Source: an uncultured Thermoplasmatales archaeon (GTDB taxonomy: Archaea > Thermoplasmatota > SW-10-69-26). From it: 64,000 nucleotides of DNA. Below the pieces are notes generated by a model. The model saw only the letters and a list, made by a program, of their open reading frames with translations, was not told the DNA's origin and made no database searches. Of this stretch, positions 22,641 to 53,365 are shown piece by piece. Made by a program: the position numbers and the translations under genes. Positions within the stretch are counted from its first letter, which is position 1. The number at the start of each line of letters is the position of its first letter. The stretch is from contig CAYNEI010000013.1 of assembly GCA_964396185.1 (NCBI GenBank), forward strand, positions 1,528-65,527, written 5' to 3'.

Positions 22641-23437
22641 CGCAGAAGCCCCCTGGAGGCCATGCGGCGCACCAGGCTGGTGGCCACGTCCTCGCTCTCG
22701 CCTTCGAAGACCTCGGTGTCACGCTCCTTCTCGGCCACGGGCTCCACACCCTGGACCGTGGTGACCGCGGCCGAGGGTCCCACCTCGTGCTTGGAGAGGG
22801 ACAGATCGTCCAACGTCCAGGTCTCCACGCTCCCGCTGGTGAAGGCTGCGTGCACGCCCCAGCTGGTGGCATGCCGCGCCCGCGGGGCGGCGTTGCCAAC
22901 GCTGATCAGGCATGGGGTGGGCACCTCGAGCTGGGCGATCCGGCCATCGGTGAGGACCTTCTCGAAGGAGAGAGTGCCCCCGTCGAGATCCACCCTGCGG
23001 CCGTGGGTCGCGATGCTCCAGCCGAGCAGGGCGGCCATGGCTGGACCTACGTGCCCTGCGTAGCGGTCCGTCGTGCGGGCGCCGGTGATGACGATATCGA
23101 TGTCGGCGAGCTTCTCTACGGTGGCGGCCAGCGCTTTGGCCACGCCCAGGCTGTCGCTGTCGGTGATGAGCGGGTCGTTGAGCAGGATGGCGCGGTCAGC
23201 CCCCATGCCCAGGGCCTCACGAAGGGTCGAGGAGGCCGCCTCGGGGCCCAGGGAGAGGGCGAGGACCTCGCTGCCGGGGTCTTGTTGTTTGATCCGGAGG
23301 GCGGTCTCCAGGGCCTTCTTGCCCAGGGGGTTCATCACGCCTTCCTCCAGGTTGAACACGGGCTTGCCCGTGCGCTTGGAGACGGCGACCTTGCCCTTCT
23401 CGGGCACGTGTTTGACCGGGACCACGATCCTTACCAT
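22637..23437 (-). CDS. etfB: Electron transfer flavoprotein beta subunit
   Basis: VPVKHVP, MNP..KALE.AL, REALGMGADRAILL. Confidence 0.93.
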   Translation of the reverse strand: MVRIVVPVKHVPEKGKVAVSKRTGKPVFNLEEGVMNPLGKKALETALRIKQQDPGSEVLALSLGPEAASSTLREALGMGADRAILLNDPLITDSDSLGVAKALAATVEKLADIDIVITGARTTDRYAGHVGPAMAALLGWSIATHGRRVDLDGGTLSFEKVLTDGRIAQLEVPTPCLISVGNAAPRARHATSWGVHAAFTSGSVETWTLDDLSLSKHEVGPSAAVTTVQGVEPVAEKERDTEVFEGESEDVATSLVRRMASRGLLR

Positions 23438-24645
23438 TCGAAGTACCCCCTCTGCACGAGCTCGCGGCCGATGACGAGGCGCTGGATCTCGTTGGTGCCC
23501 TCGAAGATCTCCGCGATGGGTGCATCCCGCAGGCCCTTCTCGAGCCGGAAGCCCTCGGCCAGCCCGCGCGCGCCCATGATGTCGCAGGCCATGTCCGTGA
23601 CCTTGGCCGCGGTCTCGCTGGCAGCGATCTTCACCTGGGCCGAGCGCCTGCTCACCTTCTCACGGAAGGGCTTGGGCACGCGCTCGCCAGCCGCGACCCG
23701 CTCGTAGTACTCCTCGACGTACTCGAGGCAGTGGTAGGTGGCGTAGCGCACCATGGTGATGTCCGTGCTCATCTCAGCCAGCTTGAACTGGACGTCCTGG
23801 TGGTGGGCGATGGGTTGGCCGAACTGCTCGCGGGCCTTGGCGTACGTGAGCGCCATCTCCAAGCCCTCCAAGGCTCCACCCAGAGAGCCGGCGGCCAGGG
23901 TGGCACGCCCGCCGTCCAGGGCGGTCAGCGCCACCAGGAAGCCCTCGCCGACGTTGCCCAAGACGTTCTCGGCCGGGACCCGGAACTCGTCGAACTCGAT
24001 CTGGGCGGTCGTGGAGCGCCGGATCCCCATCTTGTCCTCCTTGCTGGAGACCCGGAACCCCTCGCCATCGGTCTCGACGATGAACGCGGTCACACCACCT
24101 CGGGCGCCCAGCGCTGGGTCTGTGACTGCGCTGACCATGATGATGTCGGCCACATCACCGTTGGAGACGTAGATCTTCGTGCCGTCGAGCACGTACTCGT
24201 CCCCGTCGCGCTGTGCCTGGGTCTTGATGTTGGCCGCATCCGAGCCAGCCTGGGATTCGGTGAGCGCGAAGGCGCCCAGCGCCTCGCCCCGGCACAGCGG
24301 TGGCAGGTACTCCTCCCGCTGCTCCTCGGTGCCGAACAGGTAGATGGGTGCTACGCAGATGCCGGTGTGGGCACCGCAGATCGTGGCCAACCCAGTGTCG
24401 ACCCGGGAGAGCTCCTCAAGCAGGATCCCGTAGCCCACCTCGCCGAGGCCCGCGCCGCCGTACTCTGGCGGGATGGGCACGCCGAAGAGGCCCTGCTCCT
24501 GCATCTTGCGCACGGGGTCCCACGGGAACTCCTCGGTCTCGTAGAAGGAAGGCTCGATGAGCGGCCGGATCTCGGCGTCCAGGAACTCCCTCAACGTTCG
24601 GCGGAAGAGCTCCTGCTCCGGTGTGAACTCGAACTCGAGGGCCAT
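23431..24645 (-). CDS. Acyl-CoA dehydrogenase
   Basis: FALTESQAGSDA, GTKIYVSNG, KMGIR.S.T, REQFGQPI, IFEGTNEIQR. Confidence 0.96.
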   Translation of the reverse strand: MALEFEFTPEQELFRRTLREFLDAEIRPLIEPSFYETEEFPWDPVRKMQEQGLFGVPIPPEYGGAGLGEVGYGILLEELSRVDTGLATICGAHTGICVAPIYLFGTEEQREEYLPPLCRGEALGAFALTESQAGSDAANIKTQAQRDGDEYVLDGTKIYVSNGDVADIIMVSAVTDPALGARGGVTAFIVETDGEGFRVSSKEDKMGIRRSTTAQIEFDEFRVPAENVLGNVGEGFLVALTALDGGRATLAAGSLGGALEGLEMALTYAKAREQFGQPIAHHQDVQFKLAEMSTDITMVRYATYHCLEYVEEYYERVAAGERVPKPFREKVSRRSAQVKIAASETAAKVTDMACDIMGARGLAEGFRLEKGLRDAPIAEIFEGTNEIQRLVIGRELVQRGYFEW

Positions 24646-24765
24646 GGGCTCGGCCGGGAAGCGCAAGCACCGGTAATAAACGGTTGCTCTTATCGACTAC
24701 CGAGCGGAGGAGAAAAGGCTCCCGCGGGCAGGGCAGCGGATGCGGGGAGACGCCTGCTTACGGCG

Positions 24766-25161
24766 TCACTCGCTTTCGGTCTCGAAGCCGCACGCAATCC
24801 AGTCCTTGTAGCCGCCAGCCATGTTGCGCACATCCTGGAAGCCCATCCTGCGCATGGTATCGGCCGCCAGGAGCGAACGCCCTCCGCTGGCGCAGTGGAC
24901 GACGATGGAGGCCTCGCGCTTGTCCACCAGGTCTTGCCGGGCCACTGGGCTCTGGGGGTCGATGAAGAACTCGAGCAACCCCCGGGGCGCGTGGACTGCG
25001 CCCGGGATGCGCCCCTCAGCCCACTCGTTGGGCTCACGCACGTCGAGCACGAGGTCGATCTCGCCTGCCTCGATGCCTTCCTTGGCCGCTTTCGCTGTGA
25101 TCTCCGGAACGCGCTCGCGGGCTTCGGCCATCATGTCTGCGACGGTGGTCTGGTCGGTCAT
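24766..25161 (-). CDS. Rhodanese-like sulfurtransferase
   Basis: LDVREPNEW..GRIPGA.H.PRG.LE, HCASGGRS, MAGG...W. Confidence 0.9.
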   Translation of the reverse strand: MTDQTTVADMMAEARERVPEITAKAAKEGIEAGEIDLVLDVREPNEWAEGRIPGAVHAPRGLLEFFIDPQSPVARQDLVDKREASIVVHCASGGRSLLAADTMRRMGFQDVRNMAGGYKDWIACGFETESE

Positions 25162-25286
25162 GATTCGGACTCTCCGGCCCGGTGATGGGCTTCTCAAGCT
25201 TGAAGCTGATGGCCCAGAACGTGCACACGAGCGGGAGAAGACGACCGCGGACCCCGGGAGCGCCCGGGGCCGCGAGTCGTCAGTGT

Positions 25287-25634
25287 TCAGAAGTCGCGAC
25301 GAGGCGGCTTGTGCTTGGAGAAGCAGTCCCGGCAATAGACGGGTTTGTCCCCGGTGGGCTTGAAGGGGACCTGGGCATCGGCACCACAATCATCGCACGT
25401 GATGTCATGCATCTCCCGGTTCCCGCCGCGTCCACCTCCGCCGCGTCCGCCACCACCACGGCCACCGCCGCGGCCGCTGCTTGAGCCGCGCTGCTTCTGG
25501 AAGCAGTCGTTGCAGTAGACAGGTCGTCCTTCGCTCGGTTTGAAGGGGACCTCGGTGTCGGTCCCACAGTCGCTGCACGTCGCTGGGTGCATCTCGCGGG
25601 GGCCACTCTGGCCACCGCCTCTTCCTTGGTTCAC
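25287..25634 (-). CDS. CxxC-x17-CxxC domain protein (two repeats, RGG linker)
   Basis: REMH..TC.DCG...EVPFKP...RPVYC.DCF twice, separated by GRGG repeats. Confidence 0.9.
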   Translation of the reverse strand: MNQGRGGGQSGPREMHPATCSDCGTDTEVPFKPSEGRPVYCNDCFQKQRGSSSGRGGGRGGGGRGGGGRGGNREMHDITCDDCGADAQVPFKPTGDKPVYCRDCFSKHKPPRRDF

Positions 25635-25852
25635 GATATCGCTTCCTGCCGGGAGGGGATCGCATCCAAGGATCGAAGATCCACCGGAACGACACCGTCT
25701 CGACGGGGTCAAGGAGATCCAGGGAGTATATCTAGTATTGCCTTGGGGGGTGTGCAGATGGGAGCTCTCAGCAGCTTGCGGCCGCGTCATCGCGGTCGGC
25801 GGCAAGGGGCGGCCGGTGGCTGGGGCCTGCGCAGAGTGCTCGCCTTGGGCGA

Positions 25853-26002
25853 TCACTTGCTCCGGGCTGGCGGCGTCTCCCGTGGCGGCCTCGGCGAGAC
25901 AGGTGCTTCGTTGACGCCCCCCTTCCGGAGATTCGTGCGCTGCTTCTTACGGCCTCGCTTCTGTCCGGCTTCCGTTGTGTCTTCCCCGGTAGGCATCATC
26001 AT
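25853..26002 (-). CDS. Possible 49-aa basic peptide
   Basis: GGAGG RBS and tttaag box upstream; MMMPTGEDTTEAGQKRGRKKQRTNLRKG...; below ORF-track cutoff. Confidence 0.35.
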   Translation of the reverse strand: MMMPTGEDTTEAGQKRGRKKQRTNLRKGGVNEAPVSPRPPRETPPARSK

Positions 26003-26144
26003 CTATCCCTCCCTCCGGGGCCTTAAATGTTCTCCATCGATCACGGCTTCCTCGATCCCGATCGTAAGGTCCTCCGGTGATCTTCGGAGGTACAGGCCAG
26101 GAACCTGGTAGAGTTGGTTCCAGCGATGGCTAGACACGCCGGCC

Positions 26145-27080
26145 TCAGTGGTCGTAGACTTCGTCCAACGACACACTCGGGCGAGGGCCCCAGTCGATGG
26201 TCACATCGAAACCGGTGTAGTGGACCGCAGCGGTGTGGCCGCGCGCACCTGGCAGGGGATCGTGGTGGTGGGTGCCGGTGTGCTCGAAGTAGCCTTGGCC
26301 GCGGGCGACGAGGTGCTCGCCGGGTGTCGTGGTCAGGTCGAGCGCGATGGGCGGGCGGGTGTCGTTGCCTGCGTGGCCTTGGGCCCACAGGCGGGTGAGA
26401 TCGGCAGGCCGGTCACCCAGGGGCTGAACGGGATAGGTCGAGCGGTAGGCCCCGTTCCCGTCGGTGGCCATCCGGATGTCCACCAGGTCCTGCTCGACCA
26501 CCAGTTCAGCCGACATGCCCATGGCCGGGATGCCGACGGCCTGCAGGCGCTCGAGCAGCTCCTCTTCGTTCGTGGCGAGAACCGTGACGAGGTACTCGTC
26601 GTCAGCGCGCGTGGTCGCGAAGCTGGGTGTCTCGACCTTGGGGCCGACGAAGCCGAGCATCAGCTCGCTTCGCTCCTCTCCGTCCAGGGTCCACTGCTCG
26701 CAGGTGAGCGTTGCATGGTAGTGGCCCCAGGTCTCCCCCTCCTCCGGGACGGGGTGCATGGGATCCGGGATCTCGCTGTACGTCACCTGTGGCCCCGTGT
26801 CCTCGAGCACGTCGGCCACCTGCCAGGGCTCTGGCACGACGTCAGCCAGCTCGAAGAGGCCTGCCACCTCGCGTGGGTGGACGCTATGACCACCGCCCTG
26901 GGTGCAGGTGGTGCCAGTGAGGGAGAGGGATGGTGGGATGCTGGATGGATCGGTGGCCGGGCCGCTGGCTGCATCGACTGGCTGGATGGCTTCCTCGTCT
27001 CCGGGCTCGTCGGTGGCCAGGCAGCCGGCCAGCGCGGGAGCGGTGAGCAGGAGGAGGGCTAGGCCGGCGGTGGCTCGCAT
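26145..27080 (-). CDS. Secreted lipoprotein, unknown function
   Basis: MRATAGLALLLLTAPALAGCL lipobox-like signal. Confidence 0.75.
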   Translation of the reverse strand: MRATAGLALLLLTAPALAGCLATDEPGDEEAIQPVDAASGPATDPSSIPPSLSLTGTTCTQGGGHSVHPREVAGLFELADVVPEPWQVADVLEDTGPQVTYSEIPDPMHPVPEEGETWGHYHATLTCEQWTLDGEERSELMLGFVGPKVETPSFATTRADDEYLVTVLATNEEELLERLQAVGIPAMGMSAELVVEQDLVDIRMATDGNGAYRSTYPVQPLGDRPADLTRLWAQGHAGNDTRPPIALDLTTTPGEHLVARGQGYFEHTGTHHHDPLPGARGHTAAVHYTGFDVTIDWGPRPSVSLDEVYDH

Positions 27081-27239
27081 CGACGGATGAGTGGATCGCC
27101 CTCTTAAGCAGGTTGTGGCGGGGGTGTTGAAGGGATCGACAGGCGGTCTAGACGATCGCGCCTGTCGAGGAGGAGACGCATGGGCCGGGGCCGGGCTCCC
27201 TACCGGGTCGAGCTCAGCCCATCCCATCCATAGACGAAT

Positions 27240-27644
27240 TTAGAGCGCATCCAAGCCGGCTTGGTAGATGCCCTCGATGAGTTCTACGGCCTCAGCATCG
27301 CTGATCCCTGCAGGCTCGAAGGTCCCCTCCCACTCCACCACGCTGCCATCACCGTCGGCGCGGACCTGGAACGTCGCGCGGTAGTCCTTCACAGGGAGAG
27401 GTGACTCCTCGAAACGGTACGAGTAGGAACGTTCGTTCCGCTCCAGAAGCTTCTCGACGATGACGGCGCCGTCGCCCAGGGTCAGCGTCCTGACCGAACC
27501 GTCCTCGGATACATCCGTGGACTTGACCGCGGGATGCCACTCGTGGATCGACCCCCAGCCGCCTACGCGACCCCAAAGGTCGTCGGCTGACCGTTCGAAC
27601 TTCCTTGAACGCTTCGCTTGACTCAACTGTATCACTTCATCCAT
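27240..27644 (-). CDS. SRPBCC / polyketide cyclase-like protein
   Basis: LW..VGGW..IHEWHPAV, VRTLTLGDG..IVEKL, SPLPVKDY.ATF.V. Confidence 0.85.
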   Translation of the reverse strand: MDEVIQLSQAKRSRKFERSADDLWGRVGGWGSIHEWHPAVKSTDVSEDGSVRTLTLGDGAVIVEKLLERNERSYSYRFEESPLPVKDYRATFQVRADGDGSVVEWEGTFEPAGISDAEAVELIEGIYQAGLDAL

Positions 27645-27728
27645 GGGGAGCGGCTTGCCATCCCGGTCGCCCACCGTGAGATAGGTCGGACGAGTATATC
27701 TCGCTGACTGGTCATCGAACTTCGTTCG

Positions 27729-28208
27729 TCACGGGTTTTCGGACCGGTGTCGACGACCAACGTCCCAGGCGGCAGTCGCGCAGGCGGCGACCATGAGTAC
27801 GTTGCCCGGTTGCCACCACCACGCCCCGAGGTCGGCGTACACCCAGATCAGGCTCGCGAACCCCGCCAGGGCGAGGCCCCATCGCTGCGGCAGCACCGAG
27901 CCCCGCCAGGCGCCTCCAGCGGCCACCACAGCTCCTGTGGCGAAGAGCAACCCCGCGACGTTGTAAACGCTGGACCACAGGTCACCACGGTAGAACATGG
28001 CGATGCCAACCGCCACTGCGAGCAAGCCCACGGGGATGAGAGCGGTCCGTTCACTGTGCTCGCCGCGTGCCGAGACCGAGAAGCCGATCACGATCACCGC
28101 CAAACTCAAGACGGTCCAACCGTCCGGGACACCGGCGACCACCGCTACGATCCAGAGCAAGGCTGCGACCGCTGCAAGACCGAGCCCCAAAACGTAGCGT
28201 GAACGCAT
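27729..28208 (-). CDS. Membrane protein (about 6 TM helices)
   Basis: Hydrophobic throughout; promoter-like motif shared with the 27080 gene. Confidence 0.65.
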   Translation of the reverse strand: MRSRYVLGLGLAAVAALLWIVAVVAGVPDGWTVLSLAVIVIGFSVSARGEHSERTALIPVGLLAVAVGIAMFYRGDLWSSVYNVAGLLFATGAVVAAGGAWRGSVLPQRWGLALAGFASLIWVYADLGAWWWQPGNVLMVAACATAAWDVGRRHRSENP

Positions 28209-28378
28209 GGCCCACACGAGGGACGGTGGGATAAGCAGGTTGTGGATGGCTCCTTGAAATGAACGGGGGTTCTGGCTTGAAGACGCGCAACGCCATCGTC
28301 ATCTCCGGAGGGCCGGGCGAACACGTTGTAGCATCGCGTTGATGGTCCGGTGGATGAGCAGGTCGAGCCGGGTCGATG

Positions 28379-29674
28379 TTATGGGAGCATGCCCGACGCA
28401 GACCACCCGACAGCGATCTTCGGTTCGCCGCTCCTGGGATCGCTCATCGCCCACCAGACCTTGCCGTCCGCACCCACGGCGATGCCACCGTACTCGTCGC
28501 CAGCTCCCGTGCCGCGCGGCGGAGGCTGGTCGACGGGCCCGGCGAGCTGGATCGTTCGGATCGTCCCGTTGGTCGCCAAGGTGACGAGCTCGGCCCCCCA
28601 CACCGCGTCGCCCTCAGCGCGCCCATACGTCGCAAGCACGTGCAGCGCGCCGTCCGGTCCTTGGGTTGCAACGTTCCACACATAGGAGCCTTCGGGTGCT
28701 CCATCCGTGAGCGTCTCGGGCGCGCTCCATGAGGCCCCGGCGTCGGTGCTTTTTGCACGAAGAAGTCCGGAAGCCGGGAATGCCGCCAGATCCAGACGCG
28801 ATCCGTCACCGCCCAGGGCGCTCATGTCCCCGATCCACGCGCCGCCGCCGGGGAAGACCATGTGCCCAGACTCGAAGGTCGTCCCCGCGTCGCGGCTGAC
28901 AACCGCGTGCAAACCGGACGAGCTCTTCGCCGTGATGACGACGACCCCGTCTGGGTAGGCCGCGACCCGGGGCCAGAACGTTCGGTATTCGCCCAGGAAC
29001 GCGTTCAGCGGCAGCGGTGCCGACCACGTTGCGCCCTCGCCATCGCTGGTCCAGAACCACAAACCGCCGCCCTGCAGGGGGCCCGCCCCGGCCACGACAA
29101 AAAGCGCTCCTGTGTCGGGCGCGACGGCGAGGTCCATCGCATCCCAGGTCAGCACGCCCAAGTTGTGCGGGATCTGGGTGAGCGTCCACGTCGCGCCGGC
29201 GTTGGAGCTGCGGACCACGAGGATGTTGGACTCTGTGGGGAACCGCGTCTCGCCGAAGAGGACGAGTGCGTCCCCGTTGGGCGCGAAGGCGGCGATCGGG
29301 TCGAAATGCCATGAGCCTGCGGCGAGGTCCTTGGAATTCGTCTTTTGCCAGGTCTGACCGGCGTCCGTGGTAACCGCGAGCCACACGGTCCACGCTCCGG
29401 GGACGTTCTCGATCCACGCAACCAGGGCCGTATCTGGGTCCGTCGGATGGGTCGCGAGCGAAACCTCGCGATCAGGATGCTCGCCTGCGTTGAGGATCAT
29501 GGCGCACGGACGGGTCGATTCGGGCTGCTCGGCGTTCGATCGGGTGCATACGCTGGCCCTCGCATCTGTTTCGACCCTGGGGGCTCCACCCTTATCATCT
29601 GATGCAGCCTGGTCCCCGAGGCAGCCAGAGAAGCCGACGGTCACGAGCAAGAGCACAAGCGCCACGCCTTTCAC
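28379..29674 (-). CDS. Lipoprotein with BNR/Asp-box beta-propeller (sialidase-like fold)
   Basis: GFSGCL lipobox; Asp-boxes TTDAGQTW, SSNAGATW, SDGEGATW, SRDAGTTF, STDAGASW. Confidence 0.85.
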   Translation of the reverse strand: MKGVALVLLLVTVGFSGCLGDQAASDDKGGAPRVETDARASVCTRSNAEQPESTRPCAMILNAGEHPDREVSLATHPTDPDTALVAWIENVPGAWTVWLAVTTDAGQTWQKTNSKDLAAGSWHFDPIAAFAPNGDALVLFGETRFPTESNILVVRSSNAGATWTLTQIPHNLGVLTWDAMDLAVAPDTGALFVVAGAGPLQGGGLWFWTSDGEGATWSAPLPLNAFLGEYRTFWPRVAAYPDGVVVITAKSSSGLHAVVSRDAGTTFESGHMVFPGGGAWIGDMSALGGDGSRLDLAAFPASGLLRAKSTDAGASWSAPETLTDGAPEGSYVWNVATQGPDGALHVLATYGRAEGDAVWGAELVTLATNGTIRTIQLAGPVDQPPPRGTGAGDEYGGIAVGADGKVWWAMSDPRSGEPKIAVGWSASGMLP

Positions 29675-29838
29675 GACATCTCCGCCACTCGCCTTCGGAC
29701 CGCGAATCGTACTGCCTCCGACCCTCCATATGTGTTGCCCCATCGATGAATCATGCTCCTTCTCCGCATCCACTGGCCGAGGCGGCGGAACGCCCGGCCG
29801 TCCGGCGGTGGGGGCAGGGGCACGTGTGGATTACCACC

Positions 29839-30924
29839 TCAGAACCCATGCCGGTCCATCCACTCCAGGACAGCACGATGCACTTCCCGGTGATTGAGGT
29901 GGTGGAACACGGCGTGCCCCGTGTCCGGGAGCAGGAGGAGTTCGAAGTCCGCGTTCGGGTAGTGTTCCCCTTGTTGGTGCTGGTCCTCGCCCTCGTAATA
30001 GAAGTCCTCATCACCGAGGATGTTGAGAACAGGCACGTCGATCCGGGTGGTCACCTGGTTGTCGGGCCTCAACGACGCGGGCCGCGCGTCGTCCAAGGGC
30101 CGAAGCTCGTACACCCAACATCCCGCACACGCCGTCCAAACACCGAAGCTGGCGCCGACTGTGAAAGGCATGGGTGAGCCGTCGTACTCTTCCTCCCAGG
30201 CGTCGATCACGGCGGGGTCCACATTATCGAAGTGCAGCATCCACACCTGCCAGTCTTCCGGGCAATCGTCCGTCGTGTAACTCCAGCAACGATCCGCTTC
30301 ATCGGAGAAACGGCCATGGGACCAAGCCGTGGGAACGATCCCGTCGAAGGATGCGAACAGGCCCTGGGTCATGTCCGTGAGAAGACCGCCCATGGAGATG
30401 CCGGAACCCACCACGGTGTCGTGGGCGCGGGCGTCGGCCGCGGGACCGGTGACGTAGTCTCCGCTGCGCAGAGCATCCGCGACTTGGTCGATGACGAACG
30501 CGTAGTCCTCCAAACCGACAAGCCCGTCCATGCCGGGCGTGTCGCCGTACCCAGGAAGGTCGATGGCGACCGCGGTACGGCCGCTCGTGGTGAGCATGTG
30601 GGCAACAGAGTAGCCGGGGGCGGTGAGGGGTCCGAAGAGCCCCATCCTCCCGCCACCAGAGCCGTGGATCAGAAGCACCACCGCGTCCGCATCCCGGGCC
30701 TCCCACATCGCGCCCGCCACGTCCACCTCGCCGCCAGCGCGCGTCTGGACCCGGAACGTCGCTTGCACGTGGGGAGCGGACTCGTCCACGTCGTCGAGGA
30801 GCCCTGCCGGATCTGCGGGGTCTTCCGTCTCGAGCGCGTCGGGGGTGAGACAGCCTGCGAGGGCAGGAATGATGAGTAGGGCTACGATGATTCCAGCATT
30901 CTTCAAGACCACGACCTCCTCCAT
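29839..30924 (-). CDS. Lipoprotein alpha/beta hydrolase
   Basis: LAGCL lipobox, LIHGSGG, IDLPGYG, GISMG nucleophile elbow, GDED, TGH. Confidence 0.85.
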   Translation of the reverse strand: MEEVVVLKNAGIIVALLIIPALAGCLTPDALETEDPADPAGLLDDVDESAPHVQATFRVQTRAGGEVDVAGAMWEARDADAVVLLIHGSGGGRMGLFGPLTAPGYSVAHMLTTSGRTAVAIDLPGYGDTPGMDGLVGLEDYAFVIDQVADALRSGDYVTGPAADARAHDTVVGSGISMGGLLTDMTQGLFASFDGIVPTAWSHGRFSDEADRCWSYTTDDCPEDWQVWMLHFDNVDPAVIDAWEEEYDGSPMPFTVGASFGVWTACAGCWVYELRPLDDARPASLRPDNQVTTRIDVPVLNILGDEDFYYEGEDQHQQGEHYPNADFELLLLPDTGHAVFHHLNHREVHRAVLEWMDRHGF

Positions 30925-31081
30925 TTCGAGGGCGACCCAAGCCAAGGCGCCGTCGATCCGTGCAGGGATAGGTAGCCCAACAACTATTTCTTGGTTTGGG
31001 TGCTCGAATCGACTGCGGGGCCCGTTCCTGGGACCGGCCTGTCGCCGGTCGCATCATAGAAGTCGATCGCATGGCGTGATG

Positions 31082-31139
31082 GGATAACGGCAGAGGTCAG
31101 CCGCTGCCGAAGGCGGTCGGCCGGACCGAGATGTTCTAC
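31082..31139 (-). mobile_element. Integron attC-like site (58 bp)
   Basis: Minus strand GTAGAAC-5nt-GGTCCGGC...GCTGACC-6nt-GTTATCC; extrahelical G and T in canonical positions. Confidence 0.75.
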
Positions 31140-31290
31140 TGAGGGGCAGTGCACACCTGGGTAGATTCTCCCATTGTCCACGCAAGCTGGTGAAGGCCGT
31201 CGCGACGAGAAGAAAGGAGATGAGAAGGAGGTCGAAGTCCGCGTTCGGGTGCTGAGGAATGTCCTTCGCGCTTTCGATTCGTTCATACTC

Positions 31291-32943
31291 CTATCGGCCT
31301 GCGTCCCCGATGAGCGGCAGCACCGTCCGCCACGCCCCCTCCCAGTCGGTCCCGCCCATGAGCCGGAGGGCCTCCGCGACCTCGGAGGCGTCTGCGTGAC
31401 CGGCATGCACAGCCTGCTGCACGGCATGGCCGGCACGGTTGCGGGCGAAGTTCGTTTGGTCCGCGACGCCGAAGTCGATGGTGCGCTCCAGCGTCTGGTA
31501 TCCCATGGTGCTCCAGGTGCTGGAGAAGGTCAAGGAGAACTGCGGGTACCAGAGCCACTCGGGGTCGTCGTAGGGCTCGAGGTACGCATGAGGATGAGCC
31601 AGGCCGAGAAGATGCCCTGTCTCGTGGCTGAGGAGCATGTTGGCGTAGTCATAGGCGCCTCGGGAAGCGTCCCGGTCCTCGAAGCGGTGCAGGTCTGTGA
31701 TCTGGCTGAAGCTTACGCGCCGGTCCGCGTTGACGTCATAGTACGCGTACCCGGTCGAGGTGCGGCTGTCCGCGGCGTCGCCGAAGAGAATGAAACTCAC
31801 GTACGCTTCGCAGCCTGCGTGTTCCACCCAATAGCGCTCCCAGTTGGCGTCCATCCACTCCCGGTAGACGTCGCCGTGGCCCTCCATGTGGAGGCCGCCC
31901 ATCAGGAGCAGCGTGTGCGAGTTGGAACGGGAGACGGCGTCCAAGCCGGGGTCGTCCAAGGGGAGATCGAGTAAGACGGCGTCCACGCGCACGTCCCCTC
32001 TCGTGGCGTTCACAAGGGTGGCCCGCAGCCGCTCGGCGTCCACAAGGTCGGCCGCCCTCGGCGTGCCGGGAGCGATCTCGGATGCGCTCGTGGATCGCAC
32101 GCCCACGACGAGCGTGACGGCGTGGCACGGCGCCGTCGAGACCGGGAACGTGGGCCCTTGGAGGAGGCGGTAGTTGGCGGCTTCCCGCGTCGCCTCCACG
32201 ACGGCGGCCACAGTGGACTCGCCGCCGGGTCCCAGGGGCTCGTCGTGGGCGCGGGTCTCCAAGTCCCACGATTCGGTCGTGTCGTGGACCCATGGGTCCT
32301 CGCGTGCGGATATGTCGAGCACGAGCACGGGATGGCGCTCACCGAAGACGCGCACGGGCTCGAGCCACCCGTTCGCGTACTTGTAGCGGAAGGCGTGGGA
32401 TCCCCAGTCCCCATCCGGGTCTCCATGCACGAGGACGAGGGCCGGCGCGCCGGGATCGACAGGCACGCCAAGGACGGGGAGGGTGTCGGCGAACCAGTCC
32501 TCGATGGCGTTCGCGTCGTACGTTTGGCCCGCGTCCGTGACGGATGCGTCGAGGGCGTGGCGGTAGGCGTCGACCACGTCGGGCCCCGCCTCGTGGACCA
32601 CGAAGCGAGCGGTGGGTACAACAGACGGGGGAATCACGGTCCCGTAGGTTTCAGGGTCGTCCGGCAGCCCGATCTTGCCGGACGTGAGGGCCACGTGAGT
32701 GATCTTCTCGTCGTTGAGCCGCTCGTCGACCTCATCCGCGACGCCCTCGTCGAAGCCGATGAGGACGACTTGCACGTCCACGTCCACTGCAACGGCACCG
32801 TCGTCGAGGAGTTGGGCGGCGGGGTCTCCGTCCTGCGACGCCGACGGCTCGGTGTCCCCCGCGTTCAGGCACCCGGCGAGGACGGTGATGAGGAGGACCA
32901 CGGCGATCGCCGACGCGAGACCCGGCGGGCGTCCCCGTCGCAC
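31291..32943 (-). CDS. Lipoprotein zinc metalloprotease (metzincin)
   Basis: LAGCL lipobox; HETGHLLGLAH (HExxHxxGxxH); STMGY Met-turn. Confidence 0.8.
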   Translation of the reverse strand: MRRGRPPGLASAIAVVLLITVLAGCLNAGDTEPSASQDGDPAAQLLDDGAVAVDVDVQVVLIGFDEGVADEVDERLNDEKITHVALTSGKIGLPDDPETYGTVIPPSVVPTARFVVHEAGPDVVDAYRHALDASVTDAGQTYDANAIEDWFADTLPVLGVPVDPGAPALVLVHGDPDGDWGSHAFRYKYANGWLEPVRVFGERHPVLVLDISAREDPWVHDTTESWDLETRAHDEPLGPGGESTVAAVVEATREAANYRLLQGPTFPVSTAPCHAVTLVVGVRSTSASEIAPGTPRAADLVDAERLRATLVNATRGDVRVDAVLLDLPLDDPGLDAVSRSNSHTLLLMGGLHMEGHGDVYREWMDANWERYWVEHAGCEAYVSFILFGDAADSRTSTGYAYYDVNADRRVSFSQITDLHRFEDRDASRGAYDYANMLLSHETGHLLGLAHPHAYLEPYDDPEWLWYPQFSLTFSSTWSTMGYQTLERTIDFGVADQTNFARNRAGHAVQQAVHAGHADASEVAEALRLMGGTDWEGAWRTVLPLIGDAGR

Positions 32944-33191
32944 CTTCCCAATCGGTCGCGCCCGTGATATGTAGAGCTCGTTCCATCCCTGGGGTGGCCG
33001 TGGGCCATGCCGTGAAGACTGGATGCACGGCGTTCCCGGCGCAGAAGAAGCCCCGTGCCACCACCCGGCTCCCCACGTCACAATTCGCAGGTGACGAGCT
33101 ACTTGTTATATGTTTCCCGTGTTCGCGTTGGAATTGGCGTTCTCTGGCGGTTTCGTTCCATCGCGTCGAAGGATGCCACCATGGCACCTTC

Positions 33192-33251
33192 GTATAACGG
33201 TCAAGCTCAGCGGACGGCCGAAGGCCATTCAGCGGGGTCGACATGTGCGGT
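33192..33251 (-). mobile_element. Degenerate attC-like site (60 bp)
   Basis: Plus strand GTATAAC-6nt-GCTCAGC-gg-acggcc gaa ggcc; other arm has the right spacing but many substitutions; 16 bp from stop of upstream gene. Confidence 0.5.
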
Positions 33252-33266
33252 GGGAGAATTCGATGA

Positions 33267-34538
33267 TCAGGCCACCGTGGCCATTTTCTCCATTATTTGC
33301 TCTTCGATCTGGTTTGCGTGGCCTGGGCCCAAACCCAGAACCTTCTGGAGACGCAGTAGCGCACGACGTTCCTTTACACTGATCTGGCCATCCGCGGCTA
33401 AACTCTCCACCTGTGCCCGATAGATCGTTGCCCGGCGCTCAACACGGTAGGCGTGGGAGTCTTGTACGTTGGGCATGGCACGCTCACTGATTCGTTGGGC
33501 GAGGCTCTGTAGGGGTGCGATGGCGAAAACGAGAGCGCCGGCGGCGAGGATGCCGACATACTGCGACCCGAGGGTCTCGCCGAAGAACTGCTGCGCAGCC
33601 TCGCTCGCCACGAAGAAGACTGCAATGAAGACGGCTGCCATTGTGCCCCGATTGATTGTCCATTTAAGTTTGAGGTCCAAGTCGATGAGGTTGTAACGAG
33701 CCACAGCATAGAGGATCAGGAAGACGAAGACATAATCCACATAGTAATGTACGATTCCCGTCCCCGTGCGATCGAGGACCTGAAGGAGAGTGAGTGGTAG
33801 CAGGTAGAGACTCACGAAGGCGAGCGCCCGCTCGTCCGGCGTGGGGTTGCCTCTGATGACGCGAGCCATCGCGATACCCACGAGGACCAAGGCCGTCAAC
33901 ATCGCGAGGAAGGATGTAGCCAACACCGCCTGGTAGGGGGGGTCTGTATAGACCCGGGTCCAGTGCCAATGGAGGGCGAAGAGGTGGGGATAAACAACAT
34001 CGAAGAGCCCGTGATGGAGATTCACGAAGATGAATGGGAGAAGACCCCATGCGATCTGTATGCGATGGGGCCCGGGGGGACTATTTAGCCAGCGGGCGCC
34101 AAGAAAGACCAGGACAAGTAGGAACATCAGGCTGCTTGTGAGGAAAAATGTGGCCCACCAGATGGATGTAGCCTCTCCCTCTTGGAAAAAGAGCCCCGGG
34201 CTAGATAGCACGAACCCGAGGAGGATCGCAACGGCCGCCCCGGTCGAGCCGAGCATGATGATGTGCCAGCGTTCCAGGATCACACGGGGATAAACGATCC
34301 CGAAGGCCAAAGCGGCTCCTGAATGGAGTACGGCCATAAGGAGCGCTGCTATATGGGCAAAACCGGGATCGACACCAGGGAACTTGTCAGACATCAGAAG
34401 TAGGAACATCATTCCATAGAACAACACCGCGAGGCCAAGGAAGAGCCCCCCAAGTGTCCGTCGTGCGAGCCAGATCAGTACAACGCCGGCTAAAATGACG
34501 AGTATCGTGAGGACAGCGAAGAGGATCCACATCGCCAT
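33267..34538 (-). CDS. Polytopic membrane protein with TerB-like C-terminal domain; lower GC
   Basis: About 9 hydrophobic helices; C-terminal YRAQVESLAADGQISVKERRALLRLQKVLGL; more A/T at third codon positions than neighbours. Confidence 0.75.
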   Translation of the reverse strand: MAMWILFAVLTILVILAGVVLIWLARRTLGGLFLGLAVLFYGMMFLLLMSDKFPGVDPGFAHIAALLMAVLHSGAALAFGIVYPRVILERWHIIMLGSTGAAVAILLGFVLSSPGLFFQEGEATSIWWATFFLTSSLMFLLVLVFLGARWLNSPPGPHRIQIAWGLLPFIFVNLHHGLFDVVYPHLFALHWHWTRVYTDPPYQAVLATSFLAMLTALVLVGIAMARVIRGNPTPDERALAFVSLYLLPLTLLQVLDRTGTGIVHYYVDYVFVFLILYAVARYNLIDLDLKLKWTINRGTMAAVFIAVFFVASEAAQQFFGETLGSQYVGILAAGALVFAIAPLQSLAQRISERAMPNVQDSHAYRVERRATIYRAQVESLAADGQISVKERRALLRLQKVLGLGPGHANQIEEQIMEKMATVA

Positions 34539-34764
34539 GGCAGCGCACCCCGTTCACCGCACACGGGCGTCCGGCACCCTCCGCGACACCATGCACCTAA
34601 ATAAAGGCATATGTTGTCCCTCGGTCTCTTATTCAAGACGTACGGTTCCTCAACCATGCGAACCGGGTGTCCGTCGTTCCCGTACTACCGACTACCCTGA
34701 CTTGGTCCAGATGCGATCCGATTGCGATTCCTCAATACTTGACACCTCCATCATCCATCTTGTC

Positions 34765-34820
34765 GCCGAACGTTGGAGCTCAGCGGCGCGCAGCGCGTCT
34801 GCTGGAGCGAGTTGTCCGGC
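34765..34820 (-). mobile_element. Integron attC-like site (56 bp)
   Basis: Minus strand GCCGGAC-AACTC-GCTCCAGC...GCTGAGC-TCCAAC-GTTCGGC; 7/5/8...7/6/7 architecture with extrahelical G and T. Confidence 0.8.
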
Positions 34821-34882
34821 GTCCCGGGGTCAGCGACGGCCATGTTACCTTGCTGGAGCCCTGTGCGCTCCCGATCGGGGAG

Positions 34883-35665
34883 TCAGTTCGGTGGTTGGTA
34901 TGCGGCTGACCAGCCAAAGCGTGGAACGGCGATGCCCAGGCTGGTCGTCGCTTCGCCAGCGATCTCATCGGCAAGCGTGCCAGAATCCCATGTGGCTTGC
35001 ACGCTTCCGGCTTGCACATCCGCAGTCACGTCATAGTCAAACCAGGATGGCCCCTGCGGGGTGATGTGCCAGAAGCGGCTTAAGCCCTCCAAGCTACTTG
35101 GCGCCAAACCCACAACCTCCAGACTGTACTCCTGCACATCTGTTCGAACGTCGCTGGCCATCGGTACGCCTGCAGCGACGGCCACATCGCCCGCGATCGT
35201 ATTCCAACCATCAGCAATCAGCATATCGAGTTCAGGACCTGCGGGCAGGACCAGTTGTGCCAGATAGTAATGGGCATCTACCGGAGCGTTGTCTAGTTCG
35301 GGGTCCTCAACGAGGATGTTGATCTCAGCCCCGACGAAAGTGCCGTTGGTGGCCACATGCTCGTCGCACGCGTACGCAGTTAGCAGAGCCGCTCCTTCTC
35401 CGACTGGGGCGGGCGCACCCAGAAGCCCCGCGGCATCAGCCGGCCTGAAGCCGTCAGGCAAGAACGTCTCTAAGTGGTTGAAAGGAACAACGAAAGCACC
35501 TACAGCAAGGCTACAACCGGTGGCACCCCAGTCCACGGACTCCTGCAGCGTGCGATCTTCGGAGGTCCTCTCGGAAGATGGATCATGATCCTCCGCGCCT
35601 CGATCGGAGTGCAGGCAACCCGCCAACAACAACATCGTCACCAGAGCCACCGACACCCACTTCAT
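34883..35665 (-). CDS. Secreted lipoprotein, unknown function
   Basis: MKWVSVALVTMLLLAGCL lipobox. Confidence 0.75.
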   Translation of the reverse strand: MKWVSVALVTMLLLAGCLHSDRGAEDHDPSSERTSEDRTLQESVDWGATGCSLAVGAFVVPFNHLETFLPDGFRPADAAGLLGAPAPVGEGAALLTAYACDEHVATNGTFVGAEINILVEDPELDNAPVDAHYYLAQLVLPAGPELDMLIADGWNTIAGDVAVAAGVPMASDVRTDVQEYSLEVVGLAPSSLEGLSRFWHITPQGPSWFDYDVTADVQAGSVQATWDSGTLADEIAGEATTSLGIAVPRFGWSAAYQPPN

Positions 35666-36029
35666 GGACTCTAGATTAGGGCGGTGTACTTCAAATGTCT
35701 CTCACCAGCATACCAGATGAACAGAACACCACCATCGGCCGGTGCCAGCTGGCTTCGGCAGATATCCAACCTTGCCTTCCACGGGAGGTAGAACCCTTGA
35801 CGCCGAACTTGTCCGTCACCGGTGTTCCGGGTATCCTGACGCCGCCATGATCCTCGGCGTGACCCATGTGCGGGACTGAACCCTCTCCTGCCAGCCGTCT
35901 AGGTGCCGTTTCGAGCACTCTCAACCACCCACCCCGGGAACTGATCCTGCCGCACCCCAACCAGGCCGTCCATATTCTCCCGCGACTGGCCAGCCCAGTT
36001 CAAGGCCTCCTTGGCCACCCGCAGGAGCG

Positions 36030-36460
36030 TAGATCCTATCTCCCGTTCGCAATCAGTTCAGCGATCTTGCCGAACCTCCACACAGTTGGCGCGGTTCGGC
36101 CGCTCGCGGACTCGATCCTACGCCCTCTGCGAGATCACGTCCGCGATCTGCCCGAACATCCGCGTGGTTGGCGCGTTCGGACGCTCGCGAGCCTGATCCT
36201 ACGCTCTTTGCGCGATCAGGCTCGCGATATCCCCGGGGAAATCCGCCACCTCCACGCCGGCCGGAGTGACTGGAGACTTGCCGCAGCGTGCGTGGCGCTG
36301 CGGCCAGTCTCCAGATACGGACGCACCACCGCTTCGTTGGGGCGGCGGCGCGTCCTATCCGCAAGGCGGGCGCTCCGCATCGCGGATTTCCCTTCAGTAG
36401 CGGAACTGATCCTATGCACGCTGTGCGATCAGTTCCGCGATGTCGCCAGGGAAGTCCGCG
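36030..36460 (-). repeat. Array of diverged copies of the sucD 3' end, each folded into a hairpin
   Basis: Units at about 36032, 36114, 36195 and 36408; minus-strand translations ...[37 protein letters not shown], and native IAELIAQRA*. Confidence 0.75.
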
Positions 36461-37281
36461 ACCTCCACGCCCGCCTTGCGGAACGCCTCGATCTTGGACT
36501 CCGCCGTGCCCTTGCCTCGGCTCACGATGGCTCCGGCATGCCCCATCTGCTTGCCCGTGGGCGCGGATCGGCCGGCGATGTAGCCGTAGACCGGCTTGTC
36601 CACGTGCTCCTGGATGAAGGCGGCTGCCTCCTCCTCGGCGGTGCCGCCGATCTCGCCGACGACCACGATGTGCTCGGTCTCGTCGTCGGCCTGAAAGAGC
36701 TCGAGGGCGTCCACGAACGTGGTACCGGGGCACGGGTCGCCGCCGATGCCGATGCAGGTGGATTGGCCGATGTCGTTCTCCGTGAGCGCACCGACGAGCT
36801 CGTACGTGAGGGTGCCTGAGCGGGAGACGATGCCCACGTTGCCCGGAGCGAAGATACGGTTGGGCAGGATGCCGAGCTTGGTCTGCTCGGTGGGCGAGCA
36901 GACGCCGGGGCAGTTGGGCCCGAGCACACGAGCACCCTTGTAGGTCGCGTAGTGGCTGAAGATCACCGCATCGTGCGGGGGGATGTGCTCCGTGATGACG
37001 TTGACCAGCTCGATGCCTGCGTCCAGCGCCTCCAAGGCTGCGTCCCTGGCGAAGCGAGCGGGCACGAAGACGACGCTGGCGTTGGCGTCGGTCTCGTCCA
37101 CGGCTTGCTGGACGGCGTCGAAGACGGGCAGGTCGTTGACCACTTGACCCCCCTTGCCTGGCGTGACGCCTCCGACGACGTTGGTGCCGAAGTCCATCAT
37201 GGACTGGCTGTGGAACTGGCCTTGGTACCCGGTGATGCCTTGCACGATCACGCGGGTGTCCTTGCCGACCATGACGGCCAT
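36412..37281 (-). CDS. sucD: Succinyl-CoA synthetase alpha subunit
   Basis: [44 protein letters not shown]. Confidence 0.97.
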
Positions 37282-38423
37282 CACGCACCACCTCCGTTGG
37301 TGCCGGCTGCTTCGTTCCTGAGCTTCACGGCGAGCTGGGCGGCCTCCTTGGGGTCCTGGGTGGCTTCGACACCTGCGGCCTCGAGGATCTCGCGCGCCTT
37401 CTCCTCGTTGACCCCACGGATGCGGGTGACCAGAGGCACATCCAGGCCTTCTTCCTCGAGGACCTGGACGACGCCCTTGGCCACCGTGTCAGCCTTGGTG
37501 ATGCCGCCGAAGAGGTTGAGGAAGACGACCGACGGGTTGGCCTTCTTCATGAGCCGGAAGCAGGTCATGACCTTCTCGGGCGAGTCCGTGCCGCCGAGGT
37601 CCAGGAAGACGCCACCGTTGCCGCCGTAGTGCTCGAGCGCGTCGAGGGTGGCCATGGTGAGCCCGGCGCCGTTGGCGATCACACCGATATCGCCGTCGAG
37701 CTGGACGAAGGCGATGCCCTTCTCCTGGGCCTCCTTCTCCAAGGCGGTCAGGTCCTCCTCGCCGCCCTCGATGTCCGGGTGGCGGAAGGTGGCTGCGTCG
37801 TTGATGCTGACCTTGGCATCCGCGGCGACGACCTTGCCCTCGCCGGTGATGGCCAAGGGGTTGATCTCCACGAGATCCGCGTCGCTTTCGAGGTAGGTGG
37901 TGTAGAGCTTGGAGAGGATGCTGGTGACCTGCTTGGCCTGATCCTTGTCCAGGCCAAGGTTGCCCACCAGGTGGCGGGCGTGGTAGGAGGAGAACCCGGT
38001 GAAGGGGTGGACGGTCATCTTGTGGATCTTGTCGTCCGGCACCGACTCGATGTCCACGCCGCCCTCCGCGCTGATCATGACCATGGGGAGCCTGCTGGAG
38101 CGGTCCAGCAGGACCGAGGCGTAGAGCTCCTGGGCGAAGTCGAGCATCTCGACCAAGAACACCTTCTCCACCGTGAGGCCCTTGATCTCCATGCCCAGGA
38201 TGTTGTCCAGGTGCTCACGGGCCTCATCCGCGTTGTCAGCGAACTTGACGCCGCCGGCCTTGCCGCGCCCGCCGGTGAGGACCTGGGCCTTGACCACGAC
38301 CGGGTAGGGGAGATCGTCCTTGACGGCCTCGAACTCCTCGACCGACGAGACCACAACACCCTCCGGGGCCGGGATCCCGAACCGCGTGAAGAGATCGCGC
38401 CCCTGGTACTCGTAGAGCTTCAT
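37281..38423 (-). CDS. sucC: Succinyl-CoA synthetase beta subunit
   Basis: [46 protein letters not shown]. Confidence 0.97.
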
Positions 38424-38621
38424 AGCAGCGCCCATGGGCCTGCCGTTGAAAAGGGTTGCGTGGAGACACGTCCAGGGGGGTGGGCGTCGAAGCACGGGAC
38501 TTGTTCCGGTCCCCGATAGATGGGTGAGCCGGTGTCGAGAGGTTGAACGTTTCTAGCAAACGCTGAGCAGCGCCCCAAACCATTAAATCCCCACCTACAG
38601 ATTGTTCGTCCTTGGTGCATC

Positions 38622-44441: not shown

Positions 44442-44798
44442 TCAGCGCTCGGTGAGATCCTCGCGGATCCGGAGGTACTCGTCGCGCTCGATCTCGCCTG
44501 AAGCGTAGCGCTGCTCCAGGGTGGAGAGGGCACCTGAGCCTCCCCGCTCGCCACCGGACCGGTTGTTCGTCGGCTTCTTCTCGCGGTCCCGCTCGATGAG
44601 CCAGTAGGCCACCAAGCCGATGAGGATGAACGGCAGCAGGGACCACAGCCAGCCGATCATGAGCCAGGGGCCGAAGTTGAAGAACATCTCCATGCCCTCG
44701 TGGCCGAACCCCCACCCGAAGCTGGCCGCGCTCATGCTCATGGTGGCCAACAGGAGGAAAACAAGGAACCCAGCGACGAGCCAACCGAGCGCTCTCAA
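44442..44798 (-). CDS. SHOCT-domain membrane protein
   Basis: Two TM helices then ALSTLEQRYASGEIERDEY. Confidence 0.85.
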   Translation of the reverse strand: MRALGWLVAGFLVFLLLATMSMSAASFGWGFGHEGMEMFFNFGPWLMIGWLWSLLPFILIGLVAYWLIERDREKKPTNNRSGGERGGSGALSTLEQRYASGEIERDEYLRIREDLTER

Positions 44799-53079: not shown

Positions 53080-53280
53080 GTGCGAACCAGTGGGCAAGGG
53101 GGTGGTTTCGCCGATTCGGGTCAGCGCAGGGGAGGTTGGGCGCCCTCCGCCACTGAGGGTCGGGCGCCCTACCTCCAGAGTCACCCGAACGCTCCGGCCT
53201 GATCGCGTAGTTGGGCGGGCCGGAACGTTCGGGTTTTCCTGCCCTCCGCGCTCAGCTTGCGCTGTTGGAGAGAAGCTGAG

Positions 53281-53365
53281 TGCGGAGGGCAGGATTCGAA
53301 CCTGCGAACCCCTATGAGACAGCGCCCTCAACGCTGCGCCGTTGGCCAGGCTTGGCAACCTCCGC
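53281..53365 (-). tRNA. tRNA-Leu (GAG)
   Basis: gcggagg/cctccgc stem, cagcg-ttGAGgg-cgctg arm, long variable arm, gttcgaatc. Confidence 0.95.

Follow-up and report, generated by a model that had tools for sequence, protein, structure and literature searches.

Displaced copies of the sucD 3' end stacked as hairpin modules at an island junction in an uncultured Thermoplasmatales archaeon

Introduction

The locus described here, a stack of displaced copies of the 3' end of sucD (succinyl-CoA synthetase, alpha subunit), is best viewed against known systems of repeats and integrated elements. It lies in a 64-kb stretch of DNA (hereafter the window) from an uncultured Thermoplasmatales archaeon (assembly GCA_964396185.1, contig CAYNEI010000013.1). 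Repetitive extragenic palindromic (REP) sequences and bacterial interspersed mosaic elements (BIMEs) are formed by palindromic units that lie just 3' of stop codons in alternating orientation, are separated by two alternating types of spacer, and are associated with REP-associated tyrosine transposases (RAYTs). The accretion of integrative and conjugative elements (ICEs) and cis-mobilizable elements (CIMEs) proceeds by serial site-specific integration at gene 3' ends. Serial integration has likewise been described for the tycheposon arrays at tRNA genes, in which older elements are pushed outward (bioRxiv 10.1101/2020.12.28.424599). The tRNA-linked repeats (TLRs) of Escherichia coli have been known since 1978; as far as the account in PMC8144298 goes (citing Egan & Landy 1978 and Rudd 1999), the last 18-19 nt of each repeat are the same as the 3' end of the upstream gene, there are one to five repeats per locus, and their origin is unexplained. 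Finally, integrons have been reported from archaea (PMC9668308), and insertion at attG sites has been described (bioRxiv 10.1101/2022.09.11.507474).

Like a TLR, each unit of the sucD stack is found behind a gene whose 3' end it repeats at its own end. The stack is the first protein-coding example that we found of repeats of a gene's own 3' end, and the codon positions can therefore be used both as a clock and as a test. New here are the codon-level evidence, which is the most informative, the homology of the architecture across genera and a polymorphism within a population. In the following, G000 denotes the genome of the window, and G002, G003 and so on the genomes of its relatives.

Results

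Anatomy of the stack

The sucD gene lies on the minus strand at 36412-37284 (list of open reading frames (ORFs); stop codon at 36412-36414), with sucC upstream at 37281-38495. Its database matches are named succinate--CoA ligase subunit alpha and have the domains PF02629/PF00549, and the reading frame of the gene is intact. Four units and a fifth fragment lie 3' of the gene, and all of them read on the minus strand, outward from sucD. Each of the four is anchored on TAGGATC, a motif that occurs four times on the two strands of the window, always in the stack and always on the same strand. The stops of the units are found at 36414, 36201, 36120 and 36038 and are thus spaced by 213, 81 and 82 nt. 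An intact unit consists of a sucD tail followed by the reverse complement of that tail, with the stop codon within a 15-nt loop.

The live gene end, U1, forms an imperfect palindrome of 125 nt in the predicted fold (36358-36482; arms 12/12 (I9), 13/14 (I7) and 15/15 (I3)), composed of the sense tail (36412-36482), a 15-nt loop with the TAG, and a 54-nt antisense copy, AS (36358-36411). Its inner hairpin at 36400-36438, with arms 36400-36411 and 36427-36438 that are complementary at 12 of 12 positions, is precisely the 12-15-12 hairpin with the stop in its loop that had been pointed out in an earlier note made from the sequence of this DNA. The displaced long unit U2 (36185-36261) holds 63 coding nucleotides (36199-36261) and its own antisense arm (36185-36198), which pairs with 36214-36227 to give a perfect 14-15-14 hairpin. 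The earlier note had placed this echo at 36187-36225; its arms are perfect as claimed, but they measure 14 bp and not 12, while the codon changes are indeed mostly synonymous (see below).

The stack continues outward with two short units. U3 (36102-36156; ...IADVISQRA*, stop at 36118-36120) has an antisense arm that forms an imperfect hairpin (13 Watson-Crick pairs, one G-U pair and two mismatches out of 16). U4 (36036-36074; ...IAELIANGR*, stop at 36036-36038) has lost its pairing, and no hairpin of at least nine pairs was found there by the hairpin scan. The note had listed both as hairpin units (36106-36144 and about 36030-36060), which holds for their presence and for the periods of 81 and 82 nt, but not for the hairpins, which are imperfect in the former and lost in the latter. 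It had also reported a partial copy near 35936, which was recovered as the remnant U5 (35937-35956), a copy of the U1 stop and of the start of the antisense arm in which the stop has mutated to CAG; positions 35937-35948 match AGGATCAGTTCC of U1 at 12 of 12 positions, and the extended match is 16/19. An ORF of 89 amino acids with a TTG start (35691-35960, minus strand) overlaps this remnant; it has no Pfam match and may not be a real gene. Thus the hairpins decay with distance from sucD, from U1 (12/12) and U2 (14/14) via the imperfect U3 to U4, which has none, and the fragment U5. In each intact unit (U1-U3) the hairpin is matched within itself, with an arm compensated for its own tail. The assertion that the outer arm of a unit resembles the next unit more than its own gene comes down to one nucleotide (11/11 versus 10/11) and is weak.

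The modules are joined by connector hairpins, which read on the same strand. H2 (36319-36355; about 14 bp) and H3 (36270-36314; 19-nt arms that are 95% complementary, 7-nt loop) were delineated from the fold and from a cross-genus alignment of the stack (A1, genus g4), and the latter is the separate hairpin that had been noticed before. Connector E1 (36143-36188) reads GCGAGCGTCCGAAC-N17-GTTCGGGCAGATCGC, and connector E2 (36061-36107) reads GCGAGCGGCCGAAC-N18-GTTCGGCAAGATCGC; E2 is 80% identical to a copy 3' of the uS7 gene on contig C44 of G000. Behind U4 lies a terminal hairpin (35977-36027) with 16-nt arms that form 13 Watson-Crick and two G-U pairs. The predicted fold of 36020-36490 reaches -280.9 kcal/mol, as compared to -209.5 +/- 7.3 for shuffled sequences (z = -9.78; 0 of 100 shuffles as good). 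Elsewhere in G000 just one partial copy of the stack sequence was found.

Coding-type divergence of the displaced tails

Over 60 coding nucleotides U1 and U2 show 14 differences, 2, 1 and 11 of which fall on the first, second and third codon positions, respectively. These translate into 10 synonymous codon changes versus a single non-synonymous one (Glu to Ser). When 14 changes were placed at random, one amino-acid change or less was never seen in 100,000 trials (P < 1e-5). The changed codon is compensated in the antisense arm of U2. The live end and the displaced long copy of G003 (U1/Ub) differ at six positions, five of which are third positions (0, 1 and 5), and the two tails A and B of G016, which are about 170 nt long, differ by 24 synonymous versus 3 non-synonymous codons (3, 2 and 25), with one frameshift. 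In the stacks behind a hemolysin-III-like gene in G003 and G005, all eight units end in AGYVVT*, with 6 of 6 third positions and 0 of 12 first and second positions varying. Switches between codon families for Arg and Leu (CGN/AGR, CTC/TTG) recur among the copies.

A fossil record formed in situ, in which a snapshot of the tail is laid down and then decays neutrally, predicts that a dead copy changes mostly at positions 1 and 2. The four sets of counts given above are not of this kind and the model is thus rejected. Rapid turnover of the array, which would keep every unit under selection, is quantitatively awkward and was rejected too, since under such frequent turnover the units would be expected to become homogeneous, yet they differ by 20-35%. 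The reading of U2 as an independent small ORF was abandoned because G000, G003 and G005 do not share its start codon. Since the differences are nearly exclusively synonymous, the copies were once real gene ends or were renewed from them, and do not represent the debris of slippage. On the evidence of the codons, then, the displaced copies are true sucD ends that have been moulded by selection on the coding sequence.

The sucD ends of relatives

Orthologues of sucD were identified in 40 of 41 relatives, and repeats of the sucD tail in at least seven related genomes. The repeat measures 32 nt in G002 (100% identical), 68 nt in G014 (98.5% identical) and about 170 nt in G016, whereas G003 has four units at the sucD end, G005 has tandem long modules, and a relative retrieved from NCBI/ENA (sucD 88.6% identical) has just U1, one connector and one short unit. 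The order U1, AS hairpin, H3, U2, connector, U3 is homologous between G000 and G003/G005, two genomes that are placed outside the genus of the window (alignment A1). H3 itself is homologous in both, and its stem shows three fully compensatory pair changes. The correspondence is not complete: G003 has one short module inserted after U1 and a different hairpin at the position of H2, and G000 has H2 and U4 in addition. The earlier note had held that a fixed array shared by all relatives would speak against repeated integration, and this turned out to be half the case, the architecture being homologous in genus g4 with modules inserted or missing. Given this homology across genera, the stack is old and modular and not a run of recent element integrations. 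The long copies of G000, G003 and G014 share roughly the same starting codon (K-A-G, about -63 to -68).

A single bin, G016, contains two forms of the locus. Contig C58 (L044) carries tail A, 110 nt and the diverged tail B with its frameshift, while contig C44 of that genome (L022) carries a single A/B hybrid tail followed by the flank of B. Such a hybrid is the expected product of a crossover within the tail homology, and an in/out polymorphism therefore exists; the two forms are a strain polymorphism at a hotspot at the sucD end. In G001, G003, G008, G011, G016, G030 and the NCBI/ENA relative the sucD 3' end is cut by a contig end or lies at most about 300 nt away from one, which fits a junction that is rich in repeats or variable between strains.

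Between G000 and G003, sucD is 87% identical in its first 675 nt and 83% in its last 174 nt, and on this comparison the live tail U1 looks vertically inherited. When SucD was looked up exactly, with each of three alternative start codons, no other contig was obtained, and one metagenome scan returned only relatives at 56-57% identity. In a bacterial-type SucD from ENA (P0011, 335 amino acids) a stretch of about 45 residues is duplicated internally (...GGKGTA, twice), which may be a genuine tandem duplication or may stem from misassembly.

The island junction

The conserved neighbours of sucD (acyl-CoA dehydrogenase etc., 23400-27000 in the window) are located about 2 kb from sucD in G002, G003 and G004, but 9-10 kb from it in the window. 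The intervening island of about 9 kb (27230-35936) is absent from the relatives and includes an attC cassette array (about 31082-34830) and a stretch of low GC content at 33-36 kb (0.585-0.60 versus about 0.67 elsewhere). Taken together, the displacement of the neighbours, the low GC and the cassettes place the stack at an island junction, in line with the position that the note had assigned to it. At the far end of the island (27150-28450) neither a tail copy nor a hairpin module was found.

A Pfam scan of all eight ORFs of the island revealed no recombinase or integrase. The genome encodes two tyrosine recombinases (PF00589). One is IntI, on contig C12 (65486-66415) at the very end of the contig, which cuts off the cassette array there; in the roughly 480 nt past intI (L039, C12:65486-66893) four GTTATC motifs form a putative attI. 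The other (C16:44705-45214, minus strand) lies directly downstream of tRNA-Val(cac) (44504-44578) and could be a classical integrated element or XerA. No Y1 (HUH)/RAYT transposase (PF01797) was detected in G000, which is 89.5% complete, and a degenerate pattern for an 11-residue stretch of the sucD tail had no match in viral contigs. There is, accordingly, no dedicated enzyme near the stack: the island lacks an integrase, the genome lacks Y1/RAYT, and both tyrosine recombinases are encoded elsewhere.

A family of gene-end modules

Perfect hairpins that span a stop codon, with arms of at least 10 bp and loops of 12-22 nt, were found at 12 of 2231 crude ORF ends, as compared to 2 per internal control. 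With so few ends involved, such hairpins cannot be regarded as a genome-wide habit. At most of the top hairpin loci further hairpins follow, and with them a direct repeat of the gene's tail, diverged and with a compensated arm of its own. Modules trail about one third of the tRNAs as well as some ten further protein genes. Related modules are present at about 20 loci. The gene-end hairpin modules are restricted to this archaeal family, and the sucD array is one locus among them. In the genome as a whole, long perfect hairpins are enriched for loops of 12-19 nt and can be grouped into classes whose loops are conserved and whose stems vary, and some related hairpins have loops of the C(UUCG)G type.

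Other protein genes of G000 that were noted in this respect include a cytochrome-oxidase-like gene, an aminoacyl-tRNA synthetase, HtpX and an ETF-QO-like gene (oriented coordinates: C5, end 78608; C27, 9372; C62, 10342; C36, 15286; C44, 11131; C7, 43994). Their hairpins have arms of 11-18 bp and loops of 12-22 nt, and are accompanied on the 3' side by connector hairpins and by diverged copies of the genes' own tails. Among the tRNAs, forward copies of the last 18 nt occur within about 600 nt in 8 of 43, and an antisense copy at +18 to +30 in 8. The four tRNA-Leu genes that have the acceptor end CCTCCGCAC all carry nearly the same 3' hairpin (53240-53292 in the window; C5:33551-33605, C21:8217-8271, C181:1433-1486), which is made up of the last nucleotides of the tRNA, seven trailer bases, a conserved loop (about GCGCTATGGGGGAGA) and an antisense copy. 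This tRNA-Leu version was seen only in family f1.

A connector of the form GCGAGCG-(G/T)(C/A)CGAAC-N17-GTTCG(G/T)(C/A)-CAGATCGC recurs at the hemolysin-III-like gene (G003, G005), at uS7 (G000) and at a tRNA (G003); among 201 genomes of the phylum the exact motif is confined to G000, G003 and G005. After '...ATCGC' each unit headed by the connector continues with the tail of the local gene. The hemolysin-III-like membrane gene (...HYVFIAGYVVT*) is followed by three to five IAGYVVT* units (L050, G003:C160, about 4000-4400; L059/L049, G005:C309 and C51), which differ only synonymously and have a compensated antisense arm each. The four units of G005 show all four combinations of two variant blocks, the signature of recombination. 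As units headed by the connector and by 'FGQIA' also occur at this gene, the 'FGQIA' of U3 and U4 is in part shared module sequence; it may originally go back to the FPGDIA of sucD. By inference, the module seems to have reached the hemolysin-III-like gene through the ATCGC microhomology.

Discussion

The explanation that we favour, with a confidence that stays a little short of even, is that the stack is a modular array that is renewed by recombination within the tail homology at a hotspot of island exchange. A module ends with a repeated sucD tail (8-21 codons and the stop) and, directly behind it, the reverse complement of this tail, with the stop in the 15-nt loop of a hairpin of 12-16 bp, and the connector hairpins (E, H2, H3) join one module to the next. 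New modules would be gained beside sucD, whereas older ones would be pushed outward and decay. Gain and loss would take place by recombination inside 25-170 nt of tail homology, either as single-crossover insertion and excision or as unequal exchange, with the live gene and the module arrays of the same or related lineages as possible partners, and the sucD end would thereby become a hotspot for exchange of the downstream island. The antisense arms might be perfected by template switching in quasi-palindromes, or kept by selection on an RNA or DNA hairpin, for which protection of the RNA 3' end is a possible function. The mechanism of recombination, the origin of the arms and any function of the hairpins are what we infer here, whereas the anatomy, the compensated hairpins, the coding-type divergence, the homology across genera, the family context and the in/out polymorphism of one relative were observed.

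Several points weigh against this explanation. Homologous or unequal recombination by itself accounts neither for the origin of the antisense arms nor for their perfect match to each tail. If the architecture dates back to the separation of the genera, the tails should have decayed at all codon positions, which they have not, and repeated renewal from live tails is therefore required. A donor was not found, as none of the sampled functional sucD ends terminates in the ...ASLIAQRA of U2. In addition, the last residue of a displaced tail, which is specific to the lineage (A, V or T), tends to be that of the live tail in the same genome, and this fits a local origin better than import. Finally, the units of a genome agree in their last codon, in the stop and in the few bases that follow it (TAGGATC here), which resembles a site-specific core.

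A more far-reaching proposal, which we regard as speculative and rather unlikely, holds that the tail modules are an undescribed kind of self-propagating structured DNA. Such modules would copy the last codons of the host gene in both directions, spread between genes at microhomologies (from sucD to the hemolysin-III-like gene at ATCGC) and between lineages via the tail homology, and the stack would then be a dated record of past gene ends as well as a landing pad that seeds islands.

The earlier note had proposed repeated site-specific integration into the sucD 3' end by elements that supply a replacement C-terminus, possibly with the hairpins as att sites. In such a model the elements would have carried an integrase, each would have displaced the previous end, and their later deletion would have left only att remnants. 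In its favour, the units are genuine and ordered sucD ends at an island, that is, direct gene-end repeats with coding-type divergence and with a polar order, the TAGGATC core is common to them, the long copy begins at about the same codon in three genomes, the island starts directly behind the stack, and many assemblies have a contig break at the sucD end. Moreover, the tycheposons provide a documented case of older elements being pushed outward. The elements themselves, however, are missing: neither the island nor the vicinity of any unit has an integrase, the genome has only the two tyrosine recombinases mentioned above, and an element or virus with the sucD C-terminus beside an integrase was found neither among the island ORFs nor by the pattern search of viral contigs. 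The 81-213-nt gaps between copies are taken up by conserved hairpins and not by decayed element DNA, the stacks of different genera are homologous in architecture, and the length of the repeat varies from 32 to about 170 nt among genomes. The related modules at about 20 genes would call for one recombinase per target or for a recombinase that acts independently of sequence, and the hairpins, being matched within units, imply that there were no crossovers in the loop core. We therefore consider serial integration improbable. A target duplication of 15 bp of the casposon type was rejected, because the loop is much shorter than the repeated unit, the copies of which have diverged.

Alternatively, the stack could be a functional structured 3' trailer of the sucCD transcript, which stabilises or terminates the RNA or gives rise to small RNAs, and which has evolved by local tandem duplication and selection for structure. 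The very strong predicted structure (z = -9.8), the compensatory changes seen across genera in H3 and in the stems of the units, and the C(UUCG)G-type loops of related hairpins are all in line with this idea, and so are the E. coli TLRs of comparable layout, three of which are listed as processed small RNAs in the account cited in the Introduction. However, structural selection has no codon periodicity and leaves the third-position bias and the Arg and Leu codon-family switches unexplained, the pairing is lost in the outer units U4 and U5, and the number and order of the modules vary between close relatives. As an explanation of the whole stack, an RNA trailer has in our view quite a low probability.

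We see very little chance that the stack is related to the integron, either as an attI- or attG-like docking site for the cassette array or as a series of ORF-less mini-cassettes made by IntI. What led to the idea is that the attI side of the cassettes (31082-34830) faces the stack, that the connectors contain GCCGAAC ... GTTCGGC while one local attC has the same GCCGAAC box, and that IntI can insert cassettes outside att sites. The connector boxes are one mismatch away from the box consensus RYYYAAC / GTTRRRY. An attC site is at least about 57 nt long (range 57-141 nt) and has unpaired spacers and extrahelical bases. The GCCGAAC/GTTCGGC boxes of the connectors, by comparison, are 17 nt apart, which leaves no room for L boxes, and the unit hairpins are uninterrupted stems of 12-16 bp in which the layout R''-L''-loop-L'-R' was not recognised by eye. 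The earlier note had placed the stack where attI and intI would be expected, but this is not supported: intI and its attI with the GTTATC repeats are on another contig (C12), these repeats are absent from the stack, no attI-like sequence was seen, and even GTTAT is absent from 34830-36500. Furthermore, attC-like sites are confined to this window according to a simple list of CGTTAT motifs in G000, whereas the modules occur at about 20 loci, and the sucD loci of relatives have modules without cassettes.

An assembly artefact, in which strain variants of the sucD end were collapsed or concatenated, might be suspected in a metagenome-assembled genome when sucD ends lie at contig breaks in several relatives and the two G016 variants lie on two contigs, but it is hardly credible given that the same kind of stack is present in the independent assemblies of G002, G003, G005, G014, G016 and the NCBI/ENA pair, that concatenation of alleles would create neither a compensated arm for each unit nor the connectors in between, and that the contig of the window passes through the stack into unique sequence on both sides.

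The locus marks a recombination hotspot and the start of an island that contains archaeal integron cassettes. Should the modules be mobile, they would represent a novel route to gene ends that needs no dedicated integrase, and at the same time a natural record of past alleles. If they are RNA elements, they would constitute an unusual class of 3' trailers that is built from coding sequence.

In comparison with the known systems, the stack has in common with integron sites that it consists of hairpins of variable sequence in a polar array and adjoins a cassette array, but it differs in having perfect stems without extrahelical bases, and it lacks an adjacent intI, the GTTATC core and the R/L box layout. 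With REP and BIME sequences it shares palindromes after stop codons, their alternation and two types of spacer. However, REP sequences follow one genome-wide consensus, whereas the palindromes described here are built from each gene's own tail and the genome has no Y1/RAYT gene. The arrays of tycheposons and ICEs also contain partial copies of the target 3' end, with the older ones farther out, at a site that seeds islands; between their repeats, however, they hold integrases and cargo, where the sucD stack has 81-213 nt of hairpins. The stack has the traits of TLR-like gene-end modules, with 3'-end repeats, an adjoining antisense copy and connectors that are shared between loci. The TLRs themselves, however, follow tRNA and rRNA genes only, and the account in PMC8144298, as far as it extends, mentions neither antisense copies nor hairpins that span a stop codon, whereas the sucD stack has a protein gene as its target, a matched inverted arm for each copy and a divergence that is synonymous.

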